A stretch of DNA of 64,000 bases, from assembly GCA_016204045.1 (NCBI GenBank), contig JACQLQ010000001.1, positions 321,792 through 385,791 on the forward strand, in the 5' to 3' direction. The notes beneath the pieces were generated by a model. The model was not told the origin of the DNA. It saw only the letters and a list, made by a program, of their open reading frames with translations, and ran no database searches. Both the position numbers and the translations under genes were made by a program. Shown one piece after another: positions 6,131 to 62,472 of the stretch (within the stretch, counting starts at the first letter, position 1; each line of letters begins with the position of its first letter). The stretch comes from Parcubacteria group bacterium (lineage in GTDB: Bacteria; Patescibacteriota; Minisyncoccia; Phycocordibacterales; UBA2135).

Positions 6131-6232
6131 TATTCTCTCGAGTCGGATTTCTCCCGTTACCGTAACAGAGCTATAAGGAGAAAGCAATCCAACAAAAAAG
6201 GCCGAATGAATTCGGCCACACCAAAGTTCTTA

Positions 6233-7267: not shown

Positions 7268-7357
7268 CAGCAGTCTCCCTTCTCTCAACGTTGTTAGGGT
7301 TCAGGATCTGTCAGCACCGTAGCATATTAATATGAATACGTCAAATTAAGTATTCAA

Positions 7358-7401: not shown

Positions 7402-9135
7402 TTACACTAAATCGCGTCCGAAATGAGCCTTAAGTTTCTCGAGCCGTTCATGCACCAAGTCGTGCCAGCTCATTAGCCCCGGCTGAGGGTCGTTGAGAAG
7501 GGCAAGCAACTTCTCTGCCTCATCAATGAGCGCAGTGATGGGTATTGACTGATTTAACTGAGGCTTCTGATCCTTGAGAACAGCAATGATGCGCATCACC
7601 TTTGTTTTGAGTTCTTCAAGGCTGATCTTTTTCTCCTCAACGCCGCTTTCCTTGGCAAGAAGAGCCATCATTCTATCAAGGTCATACGCCAGTGTGTCTG
7701 CCTTGATCACGCGCTTTGTGGTGTCTGCCTCAGCTCTATAGAATTGGACCATACAGGTTTGATGCGTGGGGTTTCCACCAGACCACTCATTCTGCGGTTC
7801 GCTGACGAAAACGTATGCGTTTGCACTAGCGGGAGCGATAGCCTGCACCTCATTGATACCGAACTTGAAGAAACCATGATAGCCACCAACTGTCGTCCGG
7901 AAGAGGACCGGATCACCCACTTTTTCCAATGACGTGACTACATATTCTGGTTCGTACGTATCCATCCTCTCGCCCATCTTCAAGTATTGCGTGAACCATT
8001 GGTCGCCCATCTGCATCAGTGCGCGGAAACCAACACCAGGTTCTGCGTCCGGTGGGAATACGGGAACAAGCAAATCCCGCCAATATTTGTGAACGAGAGC
8101 GCGTGGCTCTGGTCCCGCGTGTACTCCCGATTCCAAATTAGCGCTTTCCTTGATGCCTACTAACCGAACGCCATTTCCCCATTCATGGCAGTGTAGATCT
8201 GAGGTGAGGCTTTCGTGGATGCCATGGTGAAGGTGGCATAAGGCGCCCGTGGTGATGAGGTGTGCAAGCGCGTATCCGTCTTCGATTTCCCGGTGTCCGT
8301 GGAAGGGGACGAATGTATAGGCACAATTTGCCGGGTCGTTTACCTGGAGAATGTGAGGATCGGAATCACGGCGCCCGTCTATCCAATGTTGCGCGCGTCT
8401 GCGGTTGAGGAAACGATCAAAGTCTGGCTGGGGTGTCTGAAATCTATTTTCTGGATCAAACCCATTCTGTTCCCTGTGCCACTCTCTCGCTGCGGCGACA
8501 TGAATACGGATGTATTCTGCGTGTCGAGGTCCATGCCTCGCCTTGAGGACTGGATCCAAGAGCGCTTGCGATGCTCGAAGGGTGCCGCCAAACGGGTATT
8601 CGTATCGTTTGCAATATGCATCAAAGTCGATGATGCAGACTGGGCCATAGTTGCCCGCCTCTAGCTTCAAAAACTCTTGTTGCGTAATTCGTCCGCCGCG
8701 ACGGTTACGGCCTTTGTCCTTGTATTCCCAACTATACGCCTTCTGAATGCCCGCAAGTGTGCTCATGGGACCAATGCCGTGCGCGACAATCAAAATACGG
8801 GAGCCATCCTTAGATATACCGAGGTATTCTGCAGTCAGGGTGGTGAAATACGTCTCCCAGGCAGGATCACCAGGCTTGCTGTTGATACGTGCTGCAATGA
8901 TATCGGGCATGGTTGCAAGACGTCCGTTCGGGCCAGCAAACTTTGTTGCCTGTTGCCACGCCGCCGGCAATCCATCCTGGTGATAGAAGGCCATCACTCC
9001 AGGAGAAACACCTTGTTTCCTTGATGTCACTTTACCGCTCCTTCCCCGACTAAGGGGTTTTGGGGGTTGCGTTTCAAAGAGCTCGGGACCATCCCAAGCC
9101 AAACTTATCTTGGAGCAAAGTCTCCACCGTGTCAA
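7402..9135 (-). CDS. large hypothetical protein, histidine-rich motifs (FHGHREIEDGY, CHLHHGIHE, HCHEW)
   Basis: 577-aa ORF (possible start at MAFYHQDG, 8997). Coiled C-terminal tail. No confident family. Lies directly upstream of the DNA ligase but has its own terminator. Confidence 0.55.
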   Translation of the reverse strand: MTRWRLCSKISLAWDGPELFETQPPKPLSRGRSGKVTSRKQGVSPGVMAFYHQDGLPAAWQQATKFAGPNGRLATMPDIIAARINSKPGDPAWETYFTTLTAEYLGISKDGSRILIVAHGIGPMSTLAGIQKAYSWEYKDKGRNRRGGRITQQEFLKLEAGNYGPVCIIDFDAYCKRYEYPFGGTLRASQALLDPVLKARHGPRHAEYIRIHVAAAREWHREQNGFDPENRFQTPQPDFDRFLNRRRAQHWIDGRRDSDPHILQVNDPANCAYTFVPFHGHREIEDGYALAHLITTGALCHLHHGIHESLTSDLHCHEWGNGVRLVGIKESANLESGVHAGPEPRALVHKYWRDLLVPVFPPDAEPGVGFRALMQMGDQWFTQYLKMGERMDTYEPEYVVTSLEKVGDPVLFRTTVGGYHGFFKFGINEVQAIAPASANAYVFVSEPQNEWSGGNPTHQTCMVQFYRAEADTTKRVIKADTLAYDLDRMMALLAKESGVEEKKISLEELKTKVMRIIAVLKDQKPQLNQSIPITALIDEAEKLLALLNDPQPGLMSWHDLVHERLEKLKAHFGRDLV

Positions 9136-16831: not shown

Positions 16832-17316
16832 CAAACAAACAGACCACCTAAAAGGCGGTCCGAACTTCTGGGAACTAAAACTTTATGAAAGAAAGAACGT
16901 GGGTGGAAGCGGCACCTGTTGCCGCCCCCACCCCTTGTCTCTCGAGGTTCGTGGGAGAACCTCAAGAGCGGGTACGCGGGTGTGCCCACGACGGAGAAGG
17001 CCGTCCACACCCTTGCCCCTTCAGCCCCGTCCGTGGCCGAACCACGCGACGGGACTGTTGTTGAAGGGAGAAGTCATTGCCCTAACCTTGAGCTGCTGCG
17101 TCGCGGCGTACGCAACTGACTTCCGACACATGGCCGCGCTGAGGCTGGCGTGCGGTGGTTACTCGTCGTGCGGCTCGCCGGCGATGGCGAGTGTCGCGTC
17201 GGCGGCGAAGCCGGCGGCGGTCGTAAGGATCGTTTCGGTCGCAGTCGTCGTCGGATCGTGCTTGTTCACGGCGTGTCTCCTCGGCGGGTGGCGTGCGGTC
17301 GGTCGATCGTCTAGCG
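16832..17316 (-). other. candidate independent transcript: small ORF plus roughly 300-nt GC-rich structured RNA
   Basis: Bounded by a consensus-like promoter (17324-17351) and a hairpin plus T-run (gaccgcc-tttta-ggtggtc-tgtttgtttgt, about 16832-16862). Contains long perfect hairpins (gtgggtggaagcggcacctgttgccgcccccacc, gaggttcgtgggagaacctc). The plus strand is GT-rich and A-poor. Confidence 0.4.
17159..17269 (-). CDS. 36-aa Thr/Ala-rich small ORF (MNKHDPTTTATETILTTAAGFAADATLAIAGEPHDE), GTG start
   Basis: GAGGAGA Shine-Dalgarno 6 nt upstream of GTG. TAA stop. Ten codons lie upstream of the GTG before an in-frame stop. Not in the ORF track (under 60 aa). Confidence 0.4.
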   Translation of the reverse strand: MNKHDPTTTATETILTTAAGFAADATLAIAGEPHDE

Positions 17317-17323
17317 TCTATAC

Positions 17324-17351
17324 ATTATACACCCTACAGTTTTTTTGTCAA
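17324..17351 (-). promoter_or_regulatory. sigma70-like promoter TTGACA-N16-TATAAT driving the sORF transcript
   Basis: Minus strand reads cTTGACAaaaaaactgtagggtgTATAATg. Confidence 0.55.
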
Positions 17352-17421
17352 GACCCCCTCAAAAGGGCCCAAGAAATGAAGCTATTTTGAACCTCTTGGA
17401 GTTTTTGCTAGAATTGTAAGC

Positions 17422-18084
17422 ATGATCATTACCTACTACGGTCTACAATTCTTCAAACTTCAAGTGGGCGACCTTGTTATTGCCGTGAACCCGATTGCGA
17501 AGGGATCAAAAGAGAAGACCGCGCGCTTTGGAGCAAATATTGCGCTTATCACTACCAACCATCCCGATATGAACGGGGCGGAGCAAGTAACCCATGGCGA
17601 CAAGAAGCCGTTTGTTGCGAATGGCCCAGGTGAATATGAAGTTGAGGGGGTTCCAATACGTGGGTTTCTTACCAAAACAAAATACGGTTCGGCAGCCTCA
17701 CCACAGGGAGGCAAGGGAGAGCGCCCCAACACCATCTATTTCTTTTCCATAGATTCGCTCGATGTATGTTTCTTGGGAGCATTAGATGATGCGACGATTC
17801 CTCCCGATGTATATGAAAAGATCTATAACGTCGATATTCTCTTTGTTCCTGTGGGGGGAGGGGAAGTCTTGACCCCTTCTGCCGCCTATAAATTGGCACT
17901 TTCGTTTGAACCGAAACTCATCATCCCTATGCATTATGGAGAGGCGTCTTCGAAGGAGCTCAAAACATTTCTCGATGAAGCAGGAGCAGAGAATGCGCGT
18001 CCTGAAGAGAAGCTTACGCTGAAGAAAAAAGACGTTGAAAGTAAAACAGGAGAGGTCGTAGTCTTGAAGCCCCTTACTTCCTAG
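17422..18084 (+). CDS. MBL-fold metal-dependent hydrolase-like protein (UPF0173-like)
   Basis: MIITYYGLQFFKL...IIPMHYG: beta-lactamase-fold architecture with a degenerate His motif. Confidence 0.65.
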   Translation: MIITYYGLQFFKLQVGDLVIAVNPIAKGSKEKTARFGANIALITTNHPDMNGAEQVTHGDKKPFVANGPGEYEVEGVPIRGFLTKTKYGSAASPQGGKGERPNTIYFFSIDSLDVCFLGALDDATIPPDVYEKIYNVDILFVPVGGGEVLTPSAAYKLALSFEPKLIIPMHYGEASSKELKTFLDEAGAENARPEEKLTLKKKDVESKTGEVVVLKPLTS

Positions 18085-18089
18085 TAAAC

Positions 18090-18323
18090 ATGTTTGCACT
18101 CCTTGAGAGTCTTAAGAAAAAACCCATCACGGTGCGTTTGCGCATTGCCTTTGGGGGAGCGCTCTTAATTACGCTTATCCTCGCGATTGTGTGGGGATTT
18201 GGTTTGACAAGACAGCTTGCGGAGGTCGGAAGTGTTACAAGTGCGTCAGACGAAGAGGTGGGGACCATGAGCCCCTTCGAGATGATTAAAAGCGAGTTTG
18301 AGGATGTCCTCGAGCGATACTGA
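18090..18323 (+). CDS. hypothetical small membrane protein
   Basis: 77-aa ORF with one TM helix (ALLITLILAIVWGFGL). Confidence 0.35.
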   Translation: MFALLESLKKKPITVRLRIAFGGALLITLILAIVWGFGLTRQLAEVGSVTSASDEEVGTMSPFEMIKSEFEDVLERY

Positions 18324-18407
18324 AGCGGCCAAGGAATGGGAGCCCACACTCCTTGAGTAGAGAGGTGTTTTTTGGTAGTATAGAAGCAACAGCAAGGACG
18401 TTTTGCT

Positions 18408-20870
18408 ATGGCAAATGAAAAGGAAAACATAAAGGAAAGCGCTGAAGAGCGCATTGTCCCTCGCAAGATTGTTACCGAGATGCGCGAGTCATATCTCGAC
18501 TACGCGATGTCGGTCATTACCTCCCGCGCACTTCCAGACGTGCGCGATGGCATGAAGCCGGTCCACCGGCGTATTTTGTATGCCATGCATGACATGGGGC
18601 TCTCGTCCGGCGGAAGGTTCCGCAAGTCTGCCGCCATCGTCGGTGAGGTGCTTGGTAAGTACCACCCACACGGCGACACGGCCGTGTATGACTCTCTGGT
18701 CAAAATGGCGCAGACGTTTTCTTCGCGCTACCCCCTTGTCCTGGGCCAGGGAAACTTCGGCTCTGTCGACGGAGACTCGGCAGCCGCTATGCGTTATACC
18801 GAGGCAAAGCTCTCGAGAAGTTCGAGCGAAATGCTTCGTGATATTGAGAAAGAGACAGTACCCTTTCGTCCCAACTATGATGGCACACACAAAGAACCGG
18901 AAGTATTGCCTGCAGCGCTACCAAACGTCCTCTTGAACGGCGCTTTGGGTATTGCCGTCGGTATGGCAACCAACATGCCTCCGCATAACCTGCGCGAAGT
19001 GGTCAACGCCACCATACACTTGATTGGCGACAAAGACGCGACAACGGAGGACTTGCTCCAGCACGTCCAAGGTCCCGATTTTCCAACAGGGGGCCTCGTT
19101 TTCAACGCCAAAGACATTGCTCACGCTTATGCGACTGGTCGCGGAGGTGTAGTGACGCGCGGAGAGGCAGAAATTGTCGAGGGCAAAAGCGGCGGTTTCC
19201 AGGTTATCATTACCTCGCTCCCGTATCGCGTGAACAAAGCAGAGTTTGTTGCGCGCATTGCCGAGCTTGTCCGCGAGAAGAAACTCGAAGGCGTTAAGGC
19301 GCTCCGCGACGAATCCTCACGAGGAGAGACGCGTGTTGCGGTGGATGTGAAGCAGGGTGCCCAGCCGCAATCTATTTTAAATTACCTCTACAAACACACT
19401 GACCTAGAGACGATGTTCCACTACAACATGCTTGCGCTGGTGGACGGCGTTCCGCGCACGCTTTCTTTGAAGAGCATTCTCCAGGAGTTCATCAAACACC
19501 GTGAAGTTGTTGTTCGCAAAAGGACCGAGTTTGACCTTGCGAAGGCAGAGGAGCGCGCACACATTTTGGAAGGGCTCAAAAAGGCGCTCGACAACATCGA
19601 CAAGATAATCACCCTCATCAAGAAGTCCAAGGATACGAAGGATGCACACGACAATTTGCAAAAACAGTTCAAGTTTTCTGACCGACAAGCCACGGCCATC
19701 CTTGAGATGCGGCTGTCAAAGCTCGCCGGTCTCGAGCGTAGGGCGGTTGAGGACGAACTCAAAGAAAAACTCGAGCTCATTAAGGAATTGAAGTCGATTT
19801 TGGGAAGTCAGGCAAAGATCCGCGACATCATCAAAAAGGAGCTTAAAGAAGTATGCGACAAATACGGTGATGAACGAAGAACCAAGGTAGTAAGGGGCGG
19901 GGTGAAGATGCTCTCCGCAGAAGATCTTGTCCCCGAAGAGGAGACGGTCTTGGTGCTTTCGCAAGGAGGCTATCTTAAGCGGACAAACCCGAAAGAATAC
20001 CGTCGCCAAAAGCGAGGAGGTGTTGGCGTGATGGACCTCTCTACCAAAGAGGAGGACTTTATTTCGATTTTCCTTACGGCCTCCACCCACGCAAGCGTGC
20101 TCTTCTTCACCAACCGCGGCAAAGCGTATCAAACAAAGATGTACGAGATCCCTGAAGGAAAGCGCGCAACTAAGGGCAAGTCCATCATGAACTTCTTGCC
20201 GCTCTCGGAGGGGGAGTTTGTTACCTCCGTTCTCCCGGTACCAAAGGAAGCGCGACAAATGAAAGACCTTTCGCTCACGATGGTGACCACAGGCGGGACC
20301 GTTAAGAAGGTGAGCGCGGATTCCTTCCTCGATGTCCGTCGGAGCGGCATCATCGCCATAAAGCTCAAGGGCGCTGATACACTTTTCTCCTCATTCTTTG
20401 TCGGGAAAGATGATGATATCATTATAGTAACAGCGAAGGGGCAGTCGATTCGCTTCAAATCTTCGCAAACGCGCGAGATGGGGCGCGCAGCGTCCGGCGT
20501 CCGGGCAGTCCGGTTCAAGAAGAACGATTCTGTTGTTGGTGCAAATGCCGTAAAGAAGAGCGAGAAAGACCCAATGCTCCTCGTCATGAGTTCTAAGGGC
20601 TATGGCAAGAGAACAGCACTCGCTGAGTACAAAGTTCAAGGACGCGGTGGTTCTGGTATTAAGACCGCAAACGTTACTCCTAAAACCGGTTCTGTCATCG
20701 GTGCTCGAGTAGTCACAGAAGACCTCGAAGAAATAATAGCCATTTCCAAGAACGGTACAGTGATCCGCACATCGCTCGCCGAGATACCAAAGCTTGGTCG
20801 CGCGACTCAAGGGGTCCGCGTGATGAAACTCCGTGAGGGAGATGAGGTTGCGACGTTTATTACACTGTAG
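18408..20870 (+). CDS. gyrA: DNA gyrase subunit A
   Basis: [20 protein letters not shown], active-site Tyr region, C-terminal beta-pinwheel repeats. AAGGA Shine-Dalgarno. Confidence 0.95.
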
Positions 20871-20888
20871 ACATATCGCCGCGCACAT

Positions 20889-21419
20889 ATGCCTTTCTCC
20901 AACCCGCAAACAATCATAGAATCGTGTCACTTTGGAATGGGATGGCATGTGGCGGAGTTTGGTGTTGGAAGTGGCGCCTATACACGCGCTATTCTCAAGG
21001 TTATAGGGAAAGAGGGCTTTGTGTACGCCGTCGATATCCAAAAGAATCTCTTGAATCGCGTACTTCGCGAAGCGAATGACGCAGGGTATTCCAACATCTC
21101 GATTGTGCACGGAGACCTGGAGCAATCGAGCGGCTCTAAGCTTGGCACCGAAAGCATGGACGCTGTCGTCATTGCAAACTTACTCTTCCAAACAAAGAAC
21201 AAAAATGGAGTTGTGGCAGAGGCGAGGCGCGTTTTGAAGCCCAAGGGGAAAGTGCTTGTTGTCGACTGGTCTGCCTCTTTTGCTGGCATTGGGCCACGTG
21301 AGGAAGACGTCATTTCCGGCGCTGAAACGGAAAAGCTCTTTACCGCCGCTGGATTTGTAGCAGAGAAGACGGTTAACGCGGGGGAGCATCACTATGGTAT
21401 CCTGTTTAAGAAGGGATAG
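20889..21419 (+). CDS. class I SAM-dependent methyltransferase
   Basis: Motif I VAEFGVGSGAYT. Acidic residue after beta-2 (VDIQ). Confidence 0.75.
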   Translation: MPFSNPQTIIESCHFGMGWHVAEFGVGSGAYTRAILKVIGKEGFVYAVDIQKNLLNRVLREANDAGYSNISIVHGDLEQSSGSKLGTESMDAVVIANLLFQTKNKNGVVAEARRVLKPKGKVLVVDWSASFAGIGPREEDVISGAETEKLFTAAGFVAEKTVNAGEHHYGILFKKG

Positions 21420-21431
21420 CCTCTCATTCGC

Positions 21432-22742
21432 ATGCAGTTTAATGCATTTCAATACACACTACTCGGCATCTTCGGCGCTTTTTTGATTTTGGGCATTGTC
21501 ATTTTCTCGGGACTTATTCCGCTTGGAAGTGATGCACCACAAGGCGTTGGCGGTACAGTCGTCGTATGGGGGACTGTCTCCGCGGCTCGTTTGAGTGAAC
21601 CGCTTGTTGCCCTAAACAACAAAAACAAAGGTTTGTTCGAGGTGCAGTATGTCGAAAAGGACTCGCGCTTCTTCGACCTAGAACTCATCGAAGCCCTTGC
21701 GGCAGATCGGGGACCTGACCTCATTTTGCTCCCACACGATTTGACCCTTCGACACCGAGACAAAATACTTCCGATTCCCTACGAAACGTTTTCGGAGCGC
21801 AGTTTTCGTGACGCATATGTAGACGCCGGTGATCTCTACTTTTCGAGCGATGGAATATTGGCGCTTCCCTTCACCATTGATCCCTTGGTCATGTACTACA
21901 ACCGCTCGCTTTTGTCGGGGGCGGGTGTCGTTAAGGCTCCCGCGTATTGGGATGAGTTCTTTATCCTCGGGGAGGAACTGACAAAGAAGGATGCTGCAGG
22001 CAACATCGAAACAAGCGCGGTCTCCTTGGGGGAGTATCGGAACATCAGGAACACGAAAGACATCCTCTCACTCCTCATGATCCAAAGCGGGAACCCCATT
22101 GTTGAAGACGAAAACGGTGTGTACCGCGTTTTACTCTCGGAGCGTCTCGGCTTGGTTGTGCCTCCGGCCGAGAGTGCACTTCGTTTCTTCACCGAGTTTT
22201 CCAACCCGACAAAGCCCATGTACTCGTGGAATCGCTCACTCTCGGAAGCGCAAGATCTCTTTGCGGCGAATGATTTGGTAATATATTTTGGGTATGCGAG
22301 CGAGAGAGCGCAGATTGAGGCAAAGAGTCCCCGGCTCAATTTTGACGTCGCCCCAATACCACAAGTGAGGAATGTGGCCACCATTGCGACATCGGGCAAG
22401 ATGACGGGGATTGCGGTTCTCAAGCGTTCGAAAAATATAACAACCGCATTTTATGCGGCGTACGCGCTTGCGGGAAGCGAATTCCTGCAAGCGGTCTTGG
22501 CACGTGACACGCTTCCGCCCGTACGTCGCGATCTCTTAGTTCACAAGCCGACAGACTCTTTTGGACGTGTCTTTTATGACGCCGCGCTCATTGTGCGCTT
22601 GTGGCCCGACCCAAATCCGGAAGCGACAGGGCGTATTTTCCAAGACATGATTGAGACGGTTGTCTCGGGAAGGCGTACCGTGGCTGAAGCAGTCGGTCGG
22701 GCGGCAATAGAACTCACGGAACTCTATCCTTCTAATCCGTAA
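21432..22742 (+). CDS. membrane-anchored extracellular solute-binding protein, family 1 (orphan, no adjacent permease/ATPase)
   Basis: N-terminal TM. GPDLILLPHD...ALPFTIDPLVMYYNRSLL...APAYWDEF aligns with MalE-type family-1 substrate-binding proteins. Confidence 0.55.
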   Translation: MQFNAFQYTLLGIFGAFLILGIVIFSGLIPLGSDAPQGVGGTVVVWGTVSAARLSEPLVALNNKNKGLFEVQYVEKDSRFFDLELIEALAADRGPDLILLPHDLTLRHRDKILPIPYETFSERSFRDAYVDAGDLYFSSDGILALPFTIDPLVMYYNRSLLSGAGVVKAPAYWDEFFILGEELTKKDAAGNIETSAVSLGEYRNIRNTKDILSLLMIQSGNPIVEDENGVYRVLLSERLGLVVPPAESALRFFTEFSNPTKPMYSWNRSLSEAQDLFAANDLVIYFGYASERAQIEAKSPRLNFDVAPIPQVRNVATIATSGKMTGIAVLKRSKNITTAFYAAYALAGSEFLQAVLARDTLPPVRRDLLVHKPTDSFGRVFYDAALIVRLWPDPNPEATGRIFQDMIETVVSGRRTVAEAVGRAAIELTELYPSNP

Positions 22743-22765
22743 CACTTCGTACTCGGTACCTCTTT

Positions 22766-23155
22766 ATGACTTTCTCAAAATTTTTCTTTCTCATACTTAT
22801 CGTAGCGCTTATCGTGCCTTTTGCCGTGTTTGGACAAGGCGTTACCCAAGAGAGGGGAATCGTGCCATGTGAAGGCACAGTAGAGAGCCCGTGCAATTTT
22901 GATGCTTTCGTCCTATTGATACAGCAGGTGATCGATTTTCTTCTCACGAGTATTGCTATGCCCGTTGCGGCACTTTCGTTTGCGTATGCGGGGTATCTGT
23001 ATCTCACCGCCGCTGGTAATGAGGGTCAGGCGAAAAAAGCTATCGGGATTTTTACCACAGTGGCGTACGGGATCATCTTTGCTCTCGCGGCATGGCTCTT
23101 GATCAACCTCATTGTCAACACACTACTTAGACCCGGCCTCTCGCTCCTGGGCTAA
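22766..23155 (+). CDS. VirB2/TrbC-like pilin-type small membrane protein (paralog 1 of 5)
   Basis: Signal peptide, then two hydrophobic helices separated by a KK-containing loop (PVAALSFAYAGYLYLTAAGNEGQAKKAIGIF...AAWLLINL). Confidence 0.5.
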   Translation: MTFSKFFFLILIVALIVPFAVFGQGVTQERGIVPCEGTVESPCNFDAFVLLIQQVIDFLLTSIAMPVAALSFAYAGYLYLTAAGNEGQAKKAIGIFTTVAYGIIFALAAWLLINLIVNTLLRPGLSLLG

Positions 23156-23273
23156 ATCGGGACCTTTGATGGATCACCCGATCGCGCCGCAGGCGGGGCC
23201 CAAGAGGAAACCCCGTGTTTGTTTATCCACAATCATTCTATCCCCGCGCTCATTTGGGCGATATAATACACCT

Positions 23274-23630
23274 ATGAGTAGACTCTCTCTAATTGTGTGG
23301 AGGTTGGCCGCCCTCGCTTTATGTTTGCCGTATATTGCGGAGGCGCAAACGCGACGACTCCAAAATCCGCTCCAGAGTGATATCAATACCCTCCCGAAAC
23401 TCGTGGAAGCGATTCTTGAAGTGGTGGTTTTGATTGGTACTCCTGTTGCGGCACTCTTCATCATCTACTCTGGCTTCCTCTTTGTTACGGCGCGCGGAGA
23501 TGAGACAAGGCTAAAGACAGCCAAAAAAGCTTTTTACTACTCAGTCATCGGTACTGCACTCCTCCTCGGTGCGTGGGCGCTTGCACAGGCAATTGGCGCC
23601 ACGATTGAGCAAGTAGTTCGTCCCCGTTAA
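23274..23630 (+). CDS. VirB2/TrbC-like pilin-type small membrane protein (paralog 2)
   Basis: MSRLSLIVWRLAALALCLPYIAEAQ signal peptide. PVAALFIIYSGFLFVTARGDETRLKTAKKAFYYSVIGTALLLGAWALA. Closest to paralog 1. Confidence 0.5.
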   Translation: MSRLSLIVWRLAALALCLPYIAEAQTRRLQNPLQSDINTLPKLVEAILEVVVLIGTPVAALFIIYSGFLFVTARGDETRLKTAKKAFYYSVIGTALLLGAWALAQAIGATIEQVVRPR

Positions 23631-23651
23631 CATCCTCAAGCATAGGTGATT

Positions 23652-24122
23652 ATGAACTACAAACTTTTTCTTCTTCTCGCGTTCGTGGCGCCTCTCTTTC
23701 TAAGCGCCCAGGGGAGAATCGGGCAAGAGCCGCAAAACGTGGGGGAACTCATCTCTCTGTTCCTCCAGATTCTTGGCCTACTCATCCCCCTAATTGTCAC
23801 TATCGCACTCATTGCGTTCCTCTGGGGTGTCTTTCGTTATGTCATTGCGAAGGGCCCTGAAGACAAAAAAGAAGCGATCAATGTAATTGCGTGGGGTCTT
23901 ATTGGTCTTTTTGTCATGGTGTCAGTCTGGGGGCTTGTTTCTGTGCTATCAAATACGTTTGGCGTACGCGGGGGTTTCCCGTTCTTTCCCACACGCGGAA
24001 CTTCTGTCGGAAATACAGTGAACACAAACAACTACACAAATACGTATGAACCCAATATTGATGAGATACCAAATCCGCCCTATGTGCCGCCACCGCAGCA
24101 AATTGACTCGCAAAGTCCGTAA
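23652..24122 (+). CDS. VirB2/TrbC-like pilin-type small membrane protein (paralog 3, Pro/Asn-rich C-terminal tail)
   Basis: Signal peptide ending LSAQG. LIPLIVTIALIAFLWGVFRYVIAKGPEDKKEAINVIAWGLIGLFVMVSVWGLVSVLSNTFGV. Confidence 0.55.
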   Translation: MNYKLFLLLAFVAPLFLSAQGRIGQEPQNVGELISLFLQILGLLIPLIVTIALIAFLWGVFRYVIAKGPEDKKEAINVIAWGLIGLFVMVSVWGLVSVLSNTFGVRGGFPFFPTRGTSVGNTVNTNNYTNTYEPNIDEIPNPPYVPPPQQIDSQSP

Positions 24123-24272
24123 CCCCCTGCGTCCAACCCACGTCCCTCCAGGCAGGGGTGTGAATAAACCCCATAGCAATCAAGCGCCGCTTACATTACA
24201 ATGTAGATAAAGTCAAAGCATTGCAAAACTACCAAGGTCGTACCTCATTATAAGTTTTAAAAACATTACTAT

Positions 24273-24629
24273 ATGAAAAAATTTCTTGTACCAGCGAGTC
24301 TTTTTGTCTTCCCACTTGTCGCAGCCGCGCAACAGACCGTTACGAGCATTCTTGCGCGCGTGATGGCAATCTTGAACCTCATTATCCCGATTGTTATTAC
24401 CTTTGCGCTCATCACGTTCCTCTGGGGTGTCTTTAAGTACGTGACAGCAGGCGAGAGTGATGACAAGAAGAAAGCCATTGAACTCATTGCATATGGTTTG
24501 GTTGCCCTCTTTGTCATGGTTGCCGTTTGGGGATTGGTCGCGATCGTTGGCAACACGTTTGGTGTTCAGCCGGGGGGAGCAGCACCAGGAGTTCCCGGCA
24601 TACCTGGGTATACAGGTGGTGGATTCTAG
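24273..24629 (+). CDS. VirB2/TrbC-like pilin-type small membrane protein (paralog 4, Gly/Pro-rich tail)
   Basis: Signal peptide ending AAAQQ. IIPIVITFALITFLWGVFKYVTAGESDDKKKAIELIAYGLVALFVMVAVWGLVAIVGNTFGV. Confidence 0.55.
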   Translation: MKKFLVPASLFVFPLVAAAQQTVTSILARVMAILNLIIPIVITFALITFLWGVFKYVTAGESDDKKKAIELIAYGLVALFVMVAVWGLVAIVGNTFGVQPGGAAPGVPGIPGYTGGGF

Positions 24630-24644
24630 TAACTTTAGAGAATC

Positions 24645-24956
24645 ATGCCCCCAGTTACTTCAGGATCAGAACAAACTGCACAAACGGCACTCGGCTCTGC
24701 TCGAGAGCTTATCTTCAGAATAAATGAGTTTATTCTGAATCCTATTATCGCGATTTTGTTCGGAATCGCACTCGTCGTCTTTCTGTGGGGAGTTGTGGAG
24801 TTTATCTGGAAGTCCAACGAAGAAACCGCGCGTGAGCGAGGTCAGCAGCACATTATGTGGGGGCTTATCGGCATGTTCATTATGGTTGCCGTGTTCTCGA
24901 TCATCCACATCATTGCTCGCACCTTTGGACTCGATATTCCTGCGACAATACGTTAA
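24645..24956 (+). CDS. VirB2/TrbC-like pilin-type small membrane protein (paralog 5, no classic signal peptide)
   Basis: IIAILFGIALVVFLWGVVEFIWKSNEETARERGQQHIMWGLIGMFIMVAVFSIIHIIARTFGL shares the FLWGV...GL..VMVAV...TFG core. Confidence 0.5.
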   Translation: MPPVTSGSEQTAQTALGSARELIFRINEFILNPIIAILFGIALVVFLWGVVEFIWKSNEETARERGQQHIMWGLIGMFIMVAVFSIIHIIARTFGLDIPATIR

Positions 24957-25097
24957 GTAAAAGTGCTAAAGAAAAGCTGGTCCCGCCCGGGCCAGCTTTT
25001 CTTTTTGAGATGTATGTGGCGTAACAATAAAAAGGCGTGATTGTAGGGCCCTCAGTTTGCTATCCTTATTGGAGATTTTAGTTGAGAGAGAAGACTG

Positions 25098-26045
25098 ATG
25101 CGTCTCCGTGGGACTGATTTCGGTGATGTATTTGGTGCTTCTGGTGTGCAAGGCTTCTTTGGAGAGGGGTACTGGTTTCATACACCCCTTCGTCCGTTTG
25201 GTCTCGACTTTGAAGGCATGACTCTCGTCTCAAAGACGGCGACACTTGAGGCAAACGTGGGGAACATGCCGCTCACAGAGTTCTATACACCACGAGATCT
25301 CTTTCCTGACTGTATTAAAATACAGCCATGGCGTGGTGCAGCGCTCAATGCCGTCAGGCTGAGTAATCCAGGGCTCAGGGCTCTCCTCGATACTGGTTTG
25401 TGGCAAATGCGAACCGAACCGTTCCTCATTTCATTTATGTCGCTCGCGGATACTCCCGAGAAGCGACTCGACGAGTTTCGTGCCGCAGTGGATATGCTCG
25501 GTCCTGCAAAAGATGATTTCTGCGCACCGTTTGGATTCCAACCCAATCTGTCATGTCCGAACACCGGGCATAAACCGAGCGAACTCATTGGTGAGTCTGC
25601 AAAAGTTCTTGAGGTTGCGGCAAAGCTTGGTGTGCCCGTAGTGCCGAAGTACAGCATTGCGTCAGCCCCAGTAGAAGCCGTTCTCGAACTCAACCAAAAT
25701 CCCAATTGTGATGCAATATGCATCTCGAACACTGTACCGTGGGGATGGCATGGGATCAATTGGGAAGGTGTTTGGGGGAGCAAGAACTCACCCCTCGCAA
25801 AGCTAGGGGGCGGTGGATTCTCGGGGGCGACACTCAAACCCTTTGTGTGTGAGTGGGTGAGCAAGTTGCGTAAGGCTGGCTTTACGAAACCCATTAATGG
25901 CGGTGGCGGCATTTTCTCCCGCAATGATATTTGGGATTATCGCTCTGCTGGCGCTTCGTCTGTTTTCTTGGGCTCTGTCGCCATGCTTCGTCCGTGGCGC
26001 GTACGCGGACTTATCAAAGAAGCCAATCGTCTGGTTTGGGAATAA
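25098..26045 (+). CDS. dihydroorotate dehydrogenase-like flavoprotein (class 1 family)
   Basis: NLSCPNTGHKP matches the class-1 DHODH NLSCPN motif. VSKTATLEANVGN substrate loop. C-terminal GGGGIFS FMN-binding glycine motif. Confidence 0.6.
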   Translation: MRLRGTDFGDVFGASGVQGFFGEGYWFHTPLRPFGLDFEGMTLVSKTATLEANVGNMPLTEFYTPRDLFPDCIKIQPWRGAALNAVRLSNPGLRALLDTGLWQMRTEPFLISFMSLADTPEKRLDEFRAAVDMLGPAKDDFCAPFGFQPNLSCPNTGHKPSELIGESAKVLEVAAKLGVPVVPKYSIASAPVEAVLELNQNPNCDAICISNTVPWGWHGINWEGVWGSKNSPLAKLGGGGFSGATLKPFVCEWVSKLRKAGFTKPINGGGGIFSRNDIWDYRSAGASSVFLGSVAMLRPWRVRGLIKEANRLVWE

Positions 26046-26048
26046 CAA

Positions 26049-26078
26049 CAACCGATCGCTATCCGCGGTCGGTTTTTA
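26049..26078 (+). terminator. terminator after pyrD-like gene
   Basis: aaccgatcgc-tatcc-gcggtcggttttt. Confidence 0.55.
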
Positions 26079-26179
26079 TTTCGTCGAGCGAGTGGGCAAA
26101 ATAAAAATGTTTCAATTTTTATTTTCTCCGAGCGAAGCGAGCCACCTCCGATACCTCGGAACAAGTCCCGAGGTCACCT

Positions 26180-27019
26180 TTACAAGTGTAGTTCTTTTGT
26201 CGTGAGTCGCCAGTCTCGCTGTGTCGTCCGCTCCTCAAGGCGTTCAATCCACGCCTCGTCAAAACTATATTGTTTCGCGATCATTTCTGGAGTCAGATGT
26301 TTTTCAGTGAGGAGATAGAGCATTTTGTCGAGCGTGTCGTAGGTGACTCCGAACGTATCCTCGTCATACCATGTGTCCACACCGCCAGGCTTCCGAGCAA
26401 TGATTTCTTCTGGCACATTGAGCACCCGCGCAAGGTCAAAGATTTCACTCTTGAAAAGTGGAGCGAGCGGTGCCACATGCCCGTAGAAATGTTCCATGAG
26501 CCGACCTGTAAGGATCTCACTTTTGTTGATTGTCGAAAGGACGGCGTAGTTTTTCTCATCGGCGACCTGGAATAAGATGTTCTGCACGACACGGGTGGAA
26601 ATGTTCACATCCGTAAAGGGCCCACGCTCTTTGACGAGCGCCTGGAAGGCCCCGTATATCTTTGAAGCGTCGAATACTTCGTACTCGACCCCGAGTGCTT
26701 CTGCGCTCGCAATAGCTAGCGCTTCTTGTTCACGGTGTTCGGGTATGTCTCCAAGGTTCACGATTACAGCTAGAACACGTTCTTTCCCAAGGGCTTTGAG
26801 AGCAAGCGCCCCCGTAGTTGCCCCATCCAAACCGTCAGAGATTCCAACAACTGCCCCAGCCCAATAATCGGGGACGGTGATGTTGTCGCGCAGGAAGTCG
26901 CACACTTTCTCGACCATTGCTTCATCTGTAACTTTTTTGTATGTAAAATTAAGCGGACCAGTTTTCTTCGGTTTTCCCGGGTAATAGCTTTCGACGTTTT
27001 GTGTGCGATCTTTCGCCAT
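26180..27019 (-). CDS. nadE: NH3-dependent NAD+ synthetase
   Basis: PP-loop GISDGLDGATT (SGGxDS variant). N-type ATP pyrophosphatase family. Confidence 0.85.
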   Translation of the reverse strand: MAKDRTQNVESYYPGKPKKTGPLNFTYKKVTDEAMVEKVCDFLRDNITVPDYWAGAVVGISDGLDGATTGALALKALGKERVLAVIVNLGDIPEHREQEALAIASAEALGVEYEVFDASKIYGAFQALVKERGPFTDVNISTRVVQNILFQVADEKNYAVLSTINKSEILTGRLMEHFYGHVAPLAPLFKSEIFDLARVLNVPEEIIARKPGGVDTWYDEDTFGVTYDTLDKMLYLLTEKHLTPEMIAKQYSFDEAWIERLEERTTQRDWRLTTKELHL

Positions 27020-36833: not shown

Positions 36834-37499
36834 CTATTCTGAAATACGCCCGTTGTCGATACGGATGATACGCTCCGCCTCTTTCGCAAACTCTTCTTCG
36901 TGGGTGACCATGATGATTGTCTGTCCCTCGTTTTTGTGCAGGTCCTTAAATGCCTTCATCACGACCCTGGACGATTCGTTGTCGAGGTTTGCCGTCGGTT
37001 CATCGACAAAGAGAATCTTGGGTCTATGCGCCACCGCACGAGCAATAGAGACGCGTTGCTGTTCCCCGCCAGAAAGTTGACTCGGCAAATTTCGAAGTCG
37101 GTGGCCAAGACCGAGGCGCTCCAGGCTTTCTTTAGATTTTTCATATGCTTCTCCTGTGGTGTGTCCTTGCATAAGGAGGGGGAGTGCTACATTTTCAAGA
37201 GCAGAGAGTTCAGGAAGAAGCGCATAGTCTTGGAATACATACCCAAACTTGTGGAGCCGTATGCGTGACTTCTCTTTGGGAGTCATCGTATGCGCTTTCT
37301 CTCCCTCAATTAAGATTTCCCCGTCTGTGGGGTCGTCGAGCAAGCTCAATTGGTAGAGGAACGTGCTTTTGCCCGCCCCTGACCGACCCATGATTGCGAG
37401 GAATTCTCCTTGCTTCACTTCGAAATCGATCCCCTTGAGCACGTGGGTTTCGATGTCTCCGTTTTTAAACGACTTCGTGAGCTTTGTTGTTTTGATCAT
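36834..37499 (-). CDS. ABC transporter ATP-binding protein (MacB/LolD/FtsE type)
   Basis: Walker A GRSGAGKST. Signature LSGGEQQRVSIARA. Walker B ILFVDEPT. Confidence 0.9.
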   Translation of the reverse strand: MIKTTKLTKSFKNGDIETHVLKGIDFEVKQGEFLAIMGRSGAGKSTFLYQLSLLDDPTDGEILIEGEKAHTMTPKEKSRIRLHKFGYVFQDYALLPELSALENVALPLLMQGHTTGEAYEKSKESLERLGLGHRLRNLPSQLSGGEQQRVSIARAVAHRPKILFVDEPTANLDNESSRVVMKAFKDLHKNEGQTIIMVTHEEEFAKEAERIIRIDNGRISE

Positions 37500-37503
37500 G
37501 GTT

Positions 37504-38757
37504 TTAGTTGCGGCCTAGGATTGAGTCGAGTGTGTTTTTGCGGATAATCATCCACGCGGGGATATAACCGGCGACGATAGTGGCAAACACAAGGAGTCCC
37601 ACACGAAAAAGAGTCTCTCCAAGCGGGGCGACCAAGATTCCGTCACTAAAGGGGAAGTTAATGGGGTGGGCATCAATTGCCGGGACGAGAAGTGAATAGA
37701 CCAGTATTAGTCCGATCGCCGAGCCGACGACCGCGTAGAACATAGACTGGAAGATATACGAAATCATAACCGCCGAACCGTTCACGCCGATTCCTTTCAA
37801 GATGCCGATATACTTACGGCGTGTAATAGCATTGATAAAGACGACGATGAAAACAGTTATGGAGGCGACAATGAGACCAAGCGAGCTAAAGGCATTTCCC
37901 AGCATGTTGAAGGTAGCAATAATATCCTTCAAAAACTTGGGTTGCGCGTCAGCATATGTTTGCACTTTCGCGTATTGGTCGACCCCGCTTCTTTTAAGTG
38001 CTTCGCGGACACTCGTGGGGTCGACGCCTTCTTTAAGTTTTACAGCGAATTGATCGACGTTCCCGTCCGTTCGTCCAATCATGCTCCTATATTGCGAATC
38101 AACCATAAAGGCGTTCCTGTTTACGGCGTCTACCTTGCTTTTCAGAAGCCCCTTCACGACCACTTCGCGGGTCACTCCGGCGACGGTAATGCGAATTTTT
38201 GTTCCCACACCAACATCGTTTAATGCTGGGAAGTTAGGATCTTCAATCGGCACGTACTGTTTAAGGAGATAGGTGCCCAAAAGAATCTGGTCGTAATCAT
38301 TCGGAGAAAGATACGCCCCTTCTGAAATGGAACTTGCGAGATCTGTTACCGCATCCTCATCTGCTGGGCTGATTCCCATAATCTGCGTGCCGACGGTGTT
38401 GGGCTTGTCCGTATCCTTCCGTGTTTTGTAGTTTGCCTCTAGAGTCCCCCCTTCACTAAAACGCGGGGACACAGCCGAGACCTCCGGCATTGTCCTTATG
38501 AGCGCGAGAAGGTTAGGGCTGTTCTCGATATATTTCTTGTCATCGAGCGTTGTAATAAAAACATCACTTGTAAATTCAACTCTCCACGCGTTAATAGAGC
38601 CCTGGATCAAGCCAACCAAAATCCCTGAGACGACGACAAGATTCAAGAAGGTGAGCACCATAATGAATATGGTGAGCCCTGTCGTCCATGGAGAAGCGCG
38701 TCGCAATTGGCGCAATGCCAAAAAGAATCCTATGCGGATATTAAGTGGAGAAAACAT
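37504..38757 (-). CDS. ABC transporter permease, FtsX/MacB-like
   Basis: 417 aa. N-terminal TM, large extracytoplasmic domain, C-terminal three-helix FtsX module. Confidence 0.85.
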   Translation of the reverse strand: MFSPLNIRIGFFLALRQLRRASPWTTGLTIFIMVLTFLNLVVVSGILVGLIQGSINAWRVEFTSDVFITTLDDKKYIENSPNLLALIRTMPEVSAVSPRFSEGGTLEANYKTRKDTDKPNTVGTQIMGISPADEDAVTDLASSISEGAYLSPNDYDQILLGTYLLKQYVPIEDPNFPALNDVGVGTKIRITVAGVTREVVVKGLLKSKVDAVNRNAFMVDSQYRSMIGRTDGNVDQFAVKLKEGVDPTSVREALKRSGVDQYAKVQTYADAQPKFLKDIIATFNMLGNAFSSLGLIVASITVFIVVFINAITRRKYIGILKGIGVNGSAVMISYIFQSMFYAVVGSAIGLILVYSLLVPAIDAHPINFPFSDGILVAPLGETLFRVGLLVFATIVAGYIPAWMIIRKNTLDSILGRN

Positions 38758-38762
38758 GGTTT

Positions 38763-40337
38763 TTACTCCTCGTTCGGTAAGACGACGACGTCACCATCGC
38801 CAAGTCCAGAGAGGATTTCAATATTGCCAAGAGATGACACAAGTCCCGTCGTCACCTCCTGCTCAAACGGGTTGTTCTCTTTGAGAATTGTCACAAATTT
38901 CTTGCCGTCACGGCGTGTGATGACCCCCTGGGGTATGCTGACTACGTTTTGACGCTCTTCGGTGGTAATGACAATGTTCGCAGTCATGCCCGAACGGATG
39001 CGTGTGTCTCCGCCATCAAAGCGAAGCATTACTTTGTATGCTGAAACACCGTCGCGGACCGTACGTGCAGGGTCTATCGAAATGATCTTGCCGCCGAATG
39101 TAACATTCGGTCCGTACGCGTCAAGTGTTACCAGCGCAGGGTTCTCCGGCTTCAAGAGCGCTACGTTTACTTCTGGTACGTATCCTTCTATCTCAAGCGT
39201 TCCCTCGCCCATCATGGCAATGGGCGATGTCCCTGACGTGACGATTTCCCCCGGTCTAATGTCCATCTTCGTCAGAATGCCATTGAATGGCGCGATTACA
39301 AGTGTTTTTCGGAGTTGCGCCCGTACGTTCTCAAGGTCTGCTTGAGCGGCTTTAACACGGGCTTTCTGCGCGTTTATGTCCGACAGTGAACTCCCCGCAC
39401 GGTCCAGGGCAAGTTTCCGTTCGTTTTTTGCAAGCGCTGTTGCGGCGCTCTTTTCTGCCGTGACGGCGCTCGTCAAGGTGTCCATTGCAACGTTCAGATT
39501 TGTCCTTGCTCCAGCCACATCGCTTGTCCATTCCGCGAGCGACGCAGAAGTTACTTGTTCATTTCGCGTACTCTTGTTGAGAGCAGTGTTTGCTAGCGAC
39601 AGAAACCTAATACCCGCTTCAAGATCCGACTTCCCCTGTGTGTTTGCGGTAGAAAGTGATTCCCCTCCAAGTGTCGCCAGGGTACTCTCCCACCGTATAA
39701 GGACCTCTTCTAACGCGAGACGCGAAGATTCAAGCTTTTCTTTTATGGATTGGTCCGTCGTGACAAAGAGCAACTGCGGGTTCGCAGATCTCGGATTTTG
39801 TATGAATTGATCGACAGTGTTTCGTACGGCGTCATCAGTTTTCGTATACGCATTTTGCAGGGCGTTTATGACACCTTGTTTTGCTTGCATCAGCGTCGCT
39901 TCATCCATAGCCACCTGCGCTTCCGTAATGGCAATCTCTTCTGGGCGCAATCCTTGAACAAGCGAAGCAAGATTTGCTTCTTCTATTTCGAGTGCTGCCT
40001 CTTTCTGAAGCACGGCCGCACGCAGATCCCCATTTTCAAGCGAAGCTAGGATTGTGCCACGAGAGACGCGATCGCCAACCTTTGCATAAGTACCAGCAAT
40101 ACGGCCACCTTGGGTGAAGCCCAGGTCGGCATCGTCTGCGGCGACAACTGTTCCCGAGACAGAGATTTGCTGAAGAAAATCTGCTGGATGTAGAGCGAGT
40201 GTTTGGGCATCCCCGCCTCCTCCGTTCATTGCGAAGAGCGTTCCGCCAACAACGAGCATGCCGGTAATTCCTGCGATAATGAAGTGAGAGCGAATAAATG
40301 AGAGCGCGGCCTTTATGTGTGAGGTTATCGTAAGCAT
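38763..40337 (-). CDS. HlyD/MacA-family periplasmic adaptor (membrane fusion) protein
   Basis: N-terminal TM, biotinyl/lipoyl-like half-motifs, very long coiled-coil, C-terminal beta-barrel (GEIVTSG...). Confidence 0.8.
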   Translation of the reverse strand: MLTITSHIKAALSFIRSHFIIAGITGMLVVGGTLFAMNGGGGDAQTLALHPADFLQQISVSGTVVAADDADLGFTQGGRIAGTYAKVGDRVSRGTILASLENGDLRAAVLQKEAALEIEEANLASLVQGLRPEEIAITEAQVAMDEATLMQAKQGVINALQNAYTKTDDAVRNTVDQFIQNPRSANPQLLFVTTDQSIKEKLESSRLALEEVLIRWESTLATLGGESLSTANTQGKSDLEAGIRFLSLANTALNKSTRNEQVTSASLAEWTSDVAGARTNLNVAMDTLTSAVTAEKSAATALAKNERKLALDRAGSSLSDINAQKARVKAAQADLENVRAQLRKTLVIAPFNGILTKMDIRPGEIVTSGTSPIAMMGEGTLEIEGYVPEVNVALLKPENPALVTLDAYGPNVTFGGKIISIDPARTVRDGVSAYKVMLRFDGGDTRIRSGMTANIVITTEERQNVVSIPQGVITRRDGKKFVTILKENNPFEQEVTTGLVSSLGNIEILSGLGDGDVVVLPNEE

Positions 40338-40469
40338 GTGGAGACGCTAACATATTTTTCCCACTTTGTCACGTCTTACTTTGTGAGGTTTACTAGGCAT
40401 TCCGTATTCCCCTTTCGTTTTCGAGAAAGGTTTGTTAGACTGCCAAACAGTCCACTGTTCGAGGGACCC

Positions 40470-62355: not shown

Positions 62356-62472
62356 GACACCCTCGCACTGATGTTCTTGTGACGTTGTACATCTTTTTAC
62401 ACATGTGGTCAACATACTCACCAACTCTACAGAGTGCTATAAGAAGGGTAGACCTGCGACGGTGAGGACACG

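Follow-up and report, generated by a model that had tools for sequence, protein, structure and literature searches.

A membrane-anchored solute-binding protein gene precedes a tandem array of VirB2-like pilin genes in a Parcubacteria group bacterium

The window analysed here is the whole of a 64 kb stretch (64,000 nt) of DNA from a Parcubacteria group bacterium. Positions 21432–24956 of this window encode a solute-binding protein (SBP) followed by five small membrane proteins, and the assignment of these five as a patescibacterial VirB2-like pilin array is solid. According to the open reading frame (ORF) listing, every real gene in this interval lies on the plus strand, and the minus-strand ORFs there are short and unsupported. 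The source proteins, from a metagenome-assembled genome (MAG), are MBI4118296.1–MBI4118301.1, of which the SBP is named as such in NCBI and the pilins are recorded as 'hypothetical protein'.

The SBP gene (21432–22742, +) is the first gene of a conserved SBP–pilin module and encodes a membrane-anchored, family-1 protein of 436 aa with a MalE-like fold. Pilin 1 (22766–23155, +; 129 aa) has a signal peptide, a Cys-x-Cys region (C35...C43-N-F) and a two-helix core, and pilin 2 (23274–23630, +; 118 aa) has a signal peptide, an NPL motif and a two-helix core. Pilin 3 (23652–24122, +; 156 aa, or 158 aa from a GTG at 23646) ends in a Pro/Asn-rich C-terminal tail of ~56 aa, pilin 4 (24273–24629, +; 118 aa) in a Gly/Pro-rich tail of ~24 aa, and pilin 5 (24645–24956, +; 103 aa) has two hydrophobic helices and no signal peptide. 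In the classification of related genomes given below, these genes are of types A, B, C, C and D, pilin 4 being the last C copy.

An earlier note on this DNA, made from the sequence alone, had described five consecutive plus-strand genes with low-complexity tails on paralogs 3 and 4. Both statements are correct, and both tails are C-terminal. The length of 172 aa given there for gene 2 is not: it was counted from 23112, where the first TTG behind a stop codon extends the reading frame too far, and the real product has 118 aa. An independent gene call on the identical metagenome contig, L001, also yields 118 aa from the start at 23274. At the other end of the array, an in-frame stop codon lies immediately 5′ of the pilin 5 ATG. 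Pairwise core identity among the five pilins is 13–55%. Pilins 3 and 4 are mutual nearest relatives (55% identical over the core), and pilins 1–2 are 13–30% identical to pilins 3–5; the core motif that had been quoted for all five, FLWGV...KK...WGLV...NTFG, describes genes 3–5 and does not extend to genes 1–2.

The pilin family named by the earlier note is that of type IV secretion system (T4SS) pilins, and it is the one to which these genes belong. Against PF18895 (T4SS_pilin; gathering score 26.6 bits), pilins 1–4 score 32.4, 34.1, 38.2 and 32.7 bits, all above the gathering score, and pilin 5 reaches 25.7 bits, 0.9 bit below it. Positional orthologues of pilin 5 (type D) at the related loci L086 and L088 are on record as PF18895 matches. 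Pilin 4 scores highest against the family profile built here (130 bits), and nearly all of its 38 homologues found carry PF18895. A homologue search with type A returned at least 10 proteins, the most distant being a solitary pilin adjoining rpsO. Among 1.84 billion proteins, the type C profile matched 16,569 cluster representatives (E ≤ 0.001), and the pilin family is therefore large. When the family profile was searched against PDB sequences, the top match was the pKM101 pilin TraM (8cw4), which is non-significant (E 0.23).

Solitary PF18895 genes, with neither an SBP gene nor an array, were seen at L089 (2276–2716), L090 (2638–3078) and L002 (10001–10438). One solitary pilin adjoins rpsO, which encodes ribosomal protein S15, as do SEML1_0024/0025 in Southlakia epibionticum, and another adjoins a gene of the AI-2E transporter family.

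Small, hydrophobic, tandemly duplicated genes with leader peptides could also encode bacteriocins or comparable secreted peptides of hydrophobic character, their immunity proteins or holin-like proteins, with the SBP gene an unrelated neighbour. This explanation is very improbable and close to refuted. The T4SS_pilin matches are significant, no double-glycine leader is present, and no peptidase-ABC (ATP-binding cassette) exporter, modification enzyme or phage gene lies nearby. Furthermore, the array sits in a housekeeping chromosomal context and is kept across the whole class in a fixed gene order. A bacteriocin or holin cluster was rejected on these grounds, the absent exporter, modification and phage genes and the conserved housekeeping context.

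Hydropathy analysis places an N-terminal h-region and two hydrophobic segments in pilins 1–4, and two segments only in pilin 5. By charge count, lysine and arginine are densest in the inter-helix loop, which holds 2–5 of them. The AlphaFold2 model of pilin 4 (mean pLDDT 74) consists of a signal-peptide helix (residues 8–18), helices spanning residues 20–58 and 62–95, and a disordered tail. Hydropathy, charge counts and the modelled hairpin of gene 4 agree with the architecture first proposed for the array, namely a signal peptide, two helices and a basic loop, with the fifth protein lacking the leader. The predicted leader cleavage sites of pilins 1–4 are VFG/Q, AEA/Q, LSA/Q and AAA/Q (cleavage at the slash), each of which would leave an N-terminal Gln, and the type C alignment shows 'AQ' almost without exception; a pyroglutamate N-terminus on the mature pilins is possible.

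To examine how far the module is conserved, an alignment of SBP homologues was used to scan 185,579 species genomes. At least 433 carry a relative (40–56% identical), and the best 80 loci of these were compared; they are labelled Wolfe-, Taylor-, Yonath-, Kaiser-, Nomura-, Zambryski- and Adlerbacteria, Paceibacterota and similar, and are 39–53% identical. Pilin-family ORFs, usually 5–7 per locus, lie directly 3′ of the SBP gene on the same strand in all 75 informative loci, the other five loci ending at a contig edge. As the same array is kept in 75/75 informative related genomes, the five genes are real and not chance ORFs. The distance from the SBP stop codon to the first pilin ATG has a median of 7 nt, and stop and start overlap in 11 loci. 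The view that the SBP belongs with the array is upheld by this tight and universal adjacency.

On its 5′ side, the SBP gene of related loci is preceded by a methyltransferase gene or gyrA, and the order S1–MBL–GyrA–methyltransferase–SBP is common to most of the 80 loci. The SBP–pilin junction is intact where the methyltransferase gene is absent, and where other genes or a transposase have been inserted between gyrA and the SBP gene. Three reduced modules were found: L023 (5809–6225) has only the SBP and a type A gene, and L042 (11333–12084) and L054 (8010–8889) have only the SBP, A and B. Unrelated genes directly follow, and types C and D are absent from these three loci. Since SBP–A, with or without B, is what these loci retain, it is the most constant part of the module.

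Clustering of 383 pilin domains from 77 loci by profile-aligned pairwise scores resolved four types in a fixed order. Type A (63 loci; gene 1 of the window) is present once per genome and in first position, and type B (74 loci; gene 2) once per genome and in second position. Type C (61 loci; genes 3 and 4) occupies the middle with 2–5 copies per genome. Type D (59 loci; gene 5) is again present once per genome and comes last, as it does in 54 of 55 arrays of at least five genes. The layout A-B-C-C-D occurs at 15 loci, the window included, A-B-C-C-C-D at 11 and A-B-C-C-C-C-D at eight. Between genomes, identity within a type is 36–41%, and between types it is 18–30%.

Each type has features of its own. 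Type A proteins have at least two Cys residues in 63/63 cases and the pattern C-x(2-14)-C-x(0-2)-[FWYL] in 54/63, with the Cys pair usually just before helix 1. Type B has a Gly/Pro-rich spacer, with the motif NP[LF] in 50 of 74 proteins. Types C and D share [FLIV]W[GN][LVI] in helix 1; type C carries variable C-terminal tails of up to 123 aa, and type D is leaderless and ~90 aa long, with two hydrophobic segments in 50 of 59 proteins.

These types bear on how the array arose. The earlier note had proposed two diverging subfamilies under diversifying selection. The comparison of 383 domains instead reveals four orthologous types at fixed positions, with A, B and D each in single copy, so that genes 1, 2 and 5 appear as old, differentiated subunits and not as recent diverging copies. 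Within a genome, type C copies are on average 45% identical (up to 89%), as against 36–39% between genomes. As C copies are closer within than between genomes, only type C undergoes lineage-specific duplication or conversion. Recent diversifying duplication was consequently rejected for genes 1, 2 and 5 and retained for the two type C genes only.

Several related loci encode pilins with additional domains. In type A, an N-terminal passenger may be inserted between the leader and the Cys pair: a Peptidase_S8 subtilase at L008 (4722–6347), Fn3/Pur_ac_phosph_N-like domains at L029 (11318–12451) and L031 (11258–12418), and ~360 aa of repeats at L021 (11299–12705). In each case, the passenger precedes the Cys pair, which is followed by the T4SS_pilin hairpin. 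These type A passengers, together with the variable C-terminal tails, point to exposure of the pilins on the outside of the cell.

Fusions are also found. Two type C units are joined in one ORF via a hydrophilic linker, the second unit being leaderless, at L061 (7668–8465) and L065 (12290–13225). The global search returned ORFs of two units, of three units (many proteins) and of six units (P0294, 552 aa), P0163–P0173 being further fused proteins, again with leaderless later units. Such fusions imply that the N- and C-termini of a unit lie on the same, outer side of the membrane, with the basic loop inside. This N-out/C-out hairpin with its loop inside is the topology known for VirB2-type pilins, and in the pilins described here both the sequence features and the fusions speak for it.

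Fused ORFs of two, three or even six pilin units are awkward for a helical homopolymer, and they lend weight to the main rival to a filament, a membrane-embedded complex of fixed composition. According to this explanation, the proteins are VirB2-family homologues that form no extended pilus and instead build a membrane-embedded hetero-oligomer of A, B, several C and D subunits, for example a T4SS channel or stalk, or a receptor complex with the SBP. The strictly single-copy state of A, B and D and their fixed order would suit such a complex, as would the absence of a signal peptide from type D and the tethering of the SBP to the membrane by a short linker. It would also suit the general lack of pili among monoderm T4SSs (PMC10633639, PMC12857230). 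On the other hand, the long, variable, low-complexity tails of type C and its lineage-specific amplification suggest an abundant, surface-exposed subunit, and the subtilase and Fn3-like passengers of type A suggest display away from the membrane. T4SS pilins are highly expressed in enrichments (PMC10936435), and a pilus is favoured by reviewers of the field (PMC12857230). A hetero-oligomer confined to the membrane is considered less likely than a filament.

The spacing of the genes within the array is uneven. Across related loci, the gap before the last C gene has a median of 106 nt, compared with medians of 5–16 nt at the other array junctions (13 nt between A and B). In the window, this gap spans 24123–24272 (+; 150 nt) and contains TGTGAATAA at 24159–24167, which is DnaA-box-like, TACAAT at 24197–24202 and GGTCGT at 24236–24241. 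Motifs were counted in 55 gaps before the last type C gene, from loci in the range L006–L085, and compared with shuffles. TATAAT-like boxes recur in these gaps, and a (T)TATCCACA/TGTGGATAA motif, which fits the DnaA-box consensus TTATNCACA, lies ~35–45 nt upstream of them. ATCCACA/TGTGGAT is present in 25/55 gaps, compared with 0.65 in shuffles; at 3.57 per kb it is 25-fold denser there than on average in the loci (0.14 per kb overall). In 24/55 gaps, compared with 1.7 in shuffles, an A-rich GGTCG(T) motif precedes the ATG by ~44 nt. It is probable that the last C gene and D are expressed from an internal promoter within 24123–24272.

The gap between genes A and B of the window (23156–23273, +) is unusually long at 118 nt, and contains TTATCCACA at 23223–23231 and TATAAT at 23262–23267. 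The 64 kb window holds three matches to TTATNCACA, two of which fall within the two long gaps of the array (at 23223 and 24159). The elements of the A–B gap may likewise constitute a promoter. The perfect TATAAT at 23262–23267 ends 6 nt before the pilin 2 ATG, and if it is a promoter, the resulting mRNA would therefore be leaderless or nearly so.

The pilin genes are the last of a longer co-directional cluster (17422–24956), in which genes for an MBL-fold protein, a small transmembrane protein, GyrA, a methyltransferase, the SBP and the five pilins are separated by short gaps, and one strong terminator follows the last of them. The upstream part of this cluster (17422–21419, +) includes GyrA at 18408–20870 and a class I methyltransferase at 20889–21419, and serves as context outside the pilin module. 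An intrinsic-terminator-like hairpin with a T run at 24968–25004 (+) closes the cluster; by RNA folding its energy is −25.5 kcal/mol (z-score −5.4), and 0/200 shuffles were as stable. A scan of 17000–26200 for consensus promoters and terminators was not above shuffles and missed this hairpin after gene 5, which was found by folding. The pilin genes may be partly co-transcribed with gyrA.

The SBP itself matches SBP_bac_1 (PF01547) at 57 bits, against a cut-off of 26 bits, and SBP_bac_8 at 44 bits. Its AlphaFold2 model (mean pLDDT 88) has a transmembrane helix at residues 5–25, a low-confidence linker at residues 23–34 and a complete two-lobe fold. Foldseek comparison with the PDB retrieved SBPs for sucrose, maltotriose and cyclodextrin (E ~1e-21, TM-score 0.67–0.83). 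The whole two-lobe fold thus matches SBPs of carbohydrate ABC importers such as MalE, Atu4361 and the cyclodextrin-binding protein. In contrast with these, the SBP of the window is anchored by a transmembrane helix, is accompanied by no permease or ATPase gene and is invariably followed by pilin genes. No BPD_transp_1-type permease was detected by Pfam among the 46 window ORFs of at least 100 aa, leaving the SBP without a cognate permease or importer ATPase in the window. In this sense, the description of an orphan, membrane-anchored family-1 SBP upstream of the array is accurate.

A complete sugar-SBP fold, the lack of an ABC importer permease or ATPase in the window and the tight translational coupling of the SBP to the first small membrane protein could together indicate an unconventional form of solute uptake, in which the SBP passes an oligosaccharide to a permease-like pore made of the two-helix proteins in place of an ABC permease. 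This explanation is improbable. Members of the T4SS pilin family sit in the S. epibionticum T4SS cluster without any SBP, and solitary family members exist that likewise lack one. There is no energy-coupling component, and neither subtilase or Fn3 passengers nor long disordered tails would have any place in a permease. An SBP-dependent permease was rejected on family membership and passenger domains. What can be said of the SBP is that it is a conserved, translationally coupled partner of the array; any role for it, be it in glycan sensing, adhesion or assembly, is guesswork. No description of an SBP–pilin link was found in the open-access literature searched.

Tandem pilin arrays in ultrasmall Patescibacteria have already been described, and the window locus adds another member to them, not a new kind of system. 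Wang et al. (2023, Cell, PMC10633639) reported the closest parallel, in S. epibionticum ML1, whose T4SS cluster contains six PF18895 pilins (SEML1_0014–0019), essential by transposon sequencing (Tn-seq), together with VirB4, PrgI and VirB6. T4SS and pilin array are essential for epibiotic growth in this one genetically tractable Patescibacterium (PMC10633639). Both arrays are tandem sets of 5–6 small, divergent PF18895 proteins on a patescibacterial chromosome, and both belong to monoderm-type organisms. The S. epibionticum array lies inside a T4SS cluster (VirB4, PrgI, VirB6) and has no SBP, whereas the window array has a MalE-like SBP gene on its 5′ side and no T4SS machinery within 64 kb. 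Essentiality has been demonstrated for the former.

In a survey of 3,035 Patescibacteria genomes by Quinonero-Coronel et al. (2025, Microb Genom, PMC12102498), which used PF18895 and PF04956, VirB4 was present in 2,417/3,035 assemblies (~80%), pilins were present in 1,948 of the VirB4-containing assemblies, and a pilin lay near virB4 in only 1,135 (PMC12102498). The same study described 441 arrays of 2–11 VirB2-like genes in 383 Patescibacteria assemblies, with a mean identity of ~25% and a maximum of 54%, and proposed that the arrays are an adaptation to different hosts (PMC12102498). The window array, with five tandem genes of 13–55% identity, fits this description. Solute-binding proteins, gyrA linkage and positional subtypes are not mentioned in PMC12102498, and the coupling to an SBP and the A-B-Cn-D architecture are apparently undescribed details. 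Kuroda et al. (2024) found T4SS pilins among the highest-expressed unknown genes of Patescibacteria in methanogen enrichments (PMC10936435), and a 2025 review singles out patescibacterial T4SSs as unique among monoderm systems for potential pili (PMC12857230).

Comparison with diderm conjugative pilins (VirB2, TrbC, TraA and TraM) reveals a shared signal peptide, two-helix hairpin and basic loop, with weak sequence similarity (24.1 bits to TrbC for gene 2). The present system differs from them in being monoderm, in having five paralogs, of four types, where those systems have one major pilin and VirB5, and in lacking adjacent VirB machinery. As a working hypothesis and by analogy only, the array may be likened to type IV pili and type II secretion systems, which combine one abundant, variable subunit with single-copy specialised ones encoded together in a fixed order, some with extra domains. 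Their fold and family are unrelated to those of the pilins described here, which have no N-terminal class III signal peptide or prepilin peptidase motif.

It is proposed, with somewhat more confidence than doubt, that this Parcubacteria (Paceibacteria-type) VirB2-like array, an operon-like module of an SBP and four PF18895 types in fixed order, supplies subunits which a T4SS encoded elsewhere assembles into a surface filament or conduit. Types A–C would be inserted by Sec and cleaved after an A-x-A-like site, leaving an N-terminal Gln. In the membrane, all types would then form N-out/C-out helical hairpins whose Lys/Arg-rich loop lies in the cytoplasm. A monoderm-type T4SS (VirB4, VirB6, PrgI/VirB3) encoded elsewhere would extract the pilins and assemble them into a surface filament or conduit for contact with a host cell. 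The bulk of the structure, and its variable surface, would be made of type C, with pilin 4 as the candidate major subunit; A, B and D would be present in few copies and have specialised tasks (at the tip or in display, as adaptor, and at the base). Two roles are envisaged for the SBP, which would be translated together with type A: it would either sense or adhere to an oligosaccharide derived from the host, or act as a partner of A and B in assembly. Dependence of the pilins on a T4SS is suggested by homology and by the prevalence of VirB4, and the presumed roles of the four types by copy number, order, passenger domains and the putative internal promoter; formation of a filament would be a further step in the same proposal. 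The surface appendage or attachment module suggested in the earlier note is plausible in view of the type A passengers and the variable C-terminal tails.

Several results weigh against assembly into a T4SS filament. No gene reaches the 27.9-bit cut-off of PF04956 (TrbC/VirB2): pilin 2 scores 24.1 bits (E 4e-5), pilin 1 scores 12.8 bits, and pilins 3–5 have no match. The expectation of a pilin-family match thus held for PF18895 and failed for PF04956, although pilin 2 (type B) is, by these scores, the paralog nearest to TrbC/VirB2. Likewise, all five genes fall below the 40-bit cut-off of NF045849 in NCBIfam, the Mbov_0395 pilin-like conjugal transfer protein of a Mycoplasma integrative and conjugative element (ICE), with 16.4–31 bits. 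A Foldseek search of the PDB with the pilin model returned nothing at E ≤ 0.001, the archaeal conjugative pilin 8dft ranking 18th with E 5; a significant match is missing because a two-helix hairpin is too simple a fold to be discriminating.

The gene neighbourhood weighs in the same direction. A Pfam scan of the 46 window ORFs of at least 100 aa detected no VirB4, VirB6, VirD4, relaxase or ABC importer permease, in agreement with the absence of VirB4, VirB6 and VirD4 that had been remarked upon before. The synteny check proposed in the earlier note brought no VirB4-like ATPase to light: within 10 kb, the 80 related loci hold no recurrent large Walker-A ATPase besides relatives of IF-2, ClpB and GyrA, and none that is VirB4-like. 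As no VirB4, VirB6 or VirD4 gene lies in the window and no such ATPase near the module in the related loci, the link to a T4SS rests on homology and published genome surveys. Moreover, the SBP–pilin linkage may in part be inherited gene order, since the wider GyrA–methyltransferase–SBP synteny block is also kept. Gram-positive-type or monoderm T4SSs generally have no pili, and neither PMC10633639 nor PMC12857230 demonstrates a T4SS pilus for any Patescibacterium. A complex with a set composition would account for the fixed single-copy subunits and the fused multi-unit ORFs no less well than a long homopolymer would.

A more far-reaching form of the filament proposal can be put forward tentatively, and is regarded as doubtful. 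The SBP and the fixed A-B-Cn-D set would then constitute a distinct, class-wide organelle module of Paceibacteria: a heteromeric T4SS-type filament in which type A serves as display or tip subunit, able to carry protease or Fn3 domains, and type D as leaderless base. A MalE-fold protein would have been recruited for a non-transport role, either to sense or adhere to host glycans or to join A and B in assembly, and the major subunit would be expressed from its own internal promoter, possibly under the control of a DnaA-box-like site. The open-access literature searched yielded no description of VirB2 homologues differentiated in the manner of minor pilins, nor of a pilus module with an SBP among its components.

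A large proportion of uncultivated bacteria are Patescibacteria. For the Paceibacteria, their largest class, the module offers three handles: an invariant SBP partner, four subunit types in fixed order, and one amplified, tail-variable type with a probable promoter region of its own. Should the SBP prove to be a functional part of the structure, a component of transporters would have been put to new use in an appendage of the cell surface, and the SBP would be a candidate determinant of host recognition.

The remainder of the window is ordinary chromosome, with genes for GyrA, HisRS, a short IF-2, ClpB, RelA/SpoT, TopA, SerRS, FtsZ, FtsA and DprA and ten tRNAs, and the pilin profile detected no further pilin gene in it. 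Six ORFs of 258–577 aa have no Pfam match at E ≤ 0.001: 7402–9135 (−), 5084–6187 (−), 61231–62424 (−), 1037–1936 (−), 40338–41114 (+) and 55362–56240 (+). The unmatched ORFs of 577 aa and 367 aa flank an ATP-dependent DNA ligase gene (6233–7288), near ftsZ and ftsA. The sole ABC genes of the window, at 36834–40337 (−), encode a MacB-type ATPase, an FtsX/MacB permease and an HlyD-family membrane-fusion protein together; Patescibacteria are thought to lack an outer membrane. Two ParB-like genes lie at 47159–48184 (+) and 62473–63636 (+), the second being divergent and matching part of ParB_N and HTH_ParB only.

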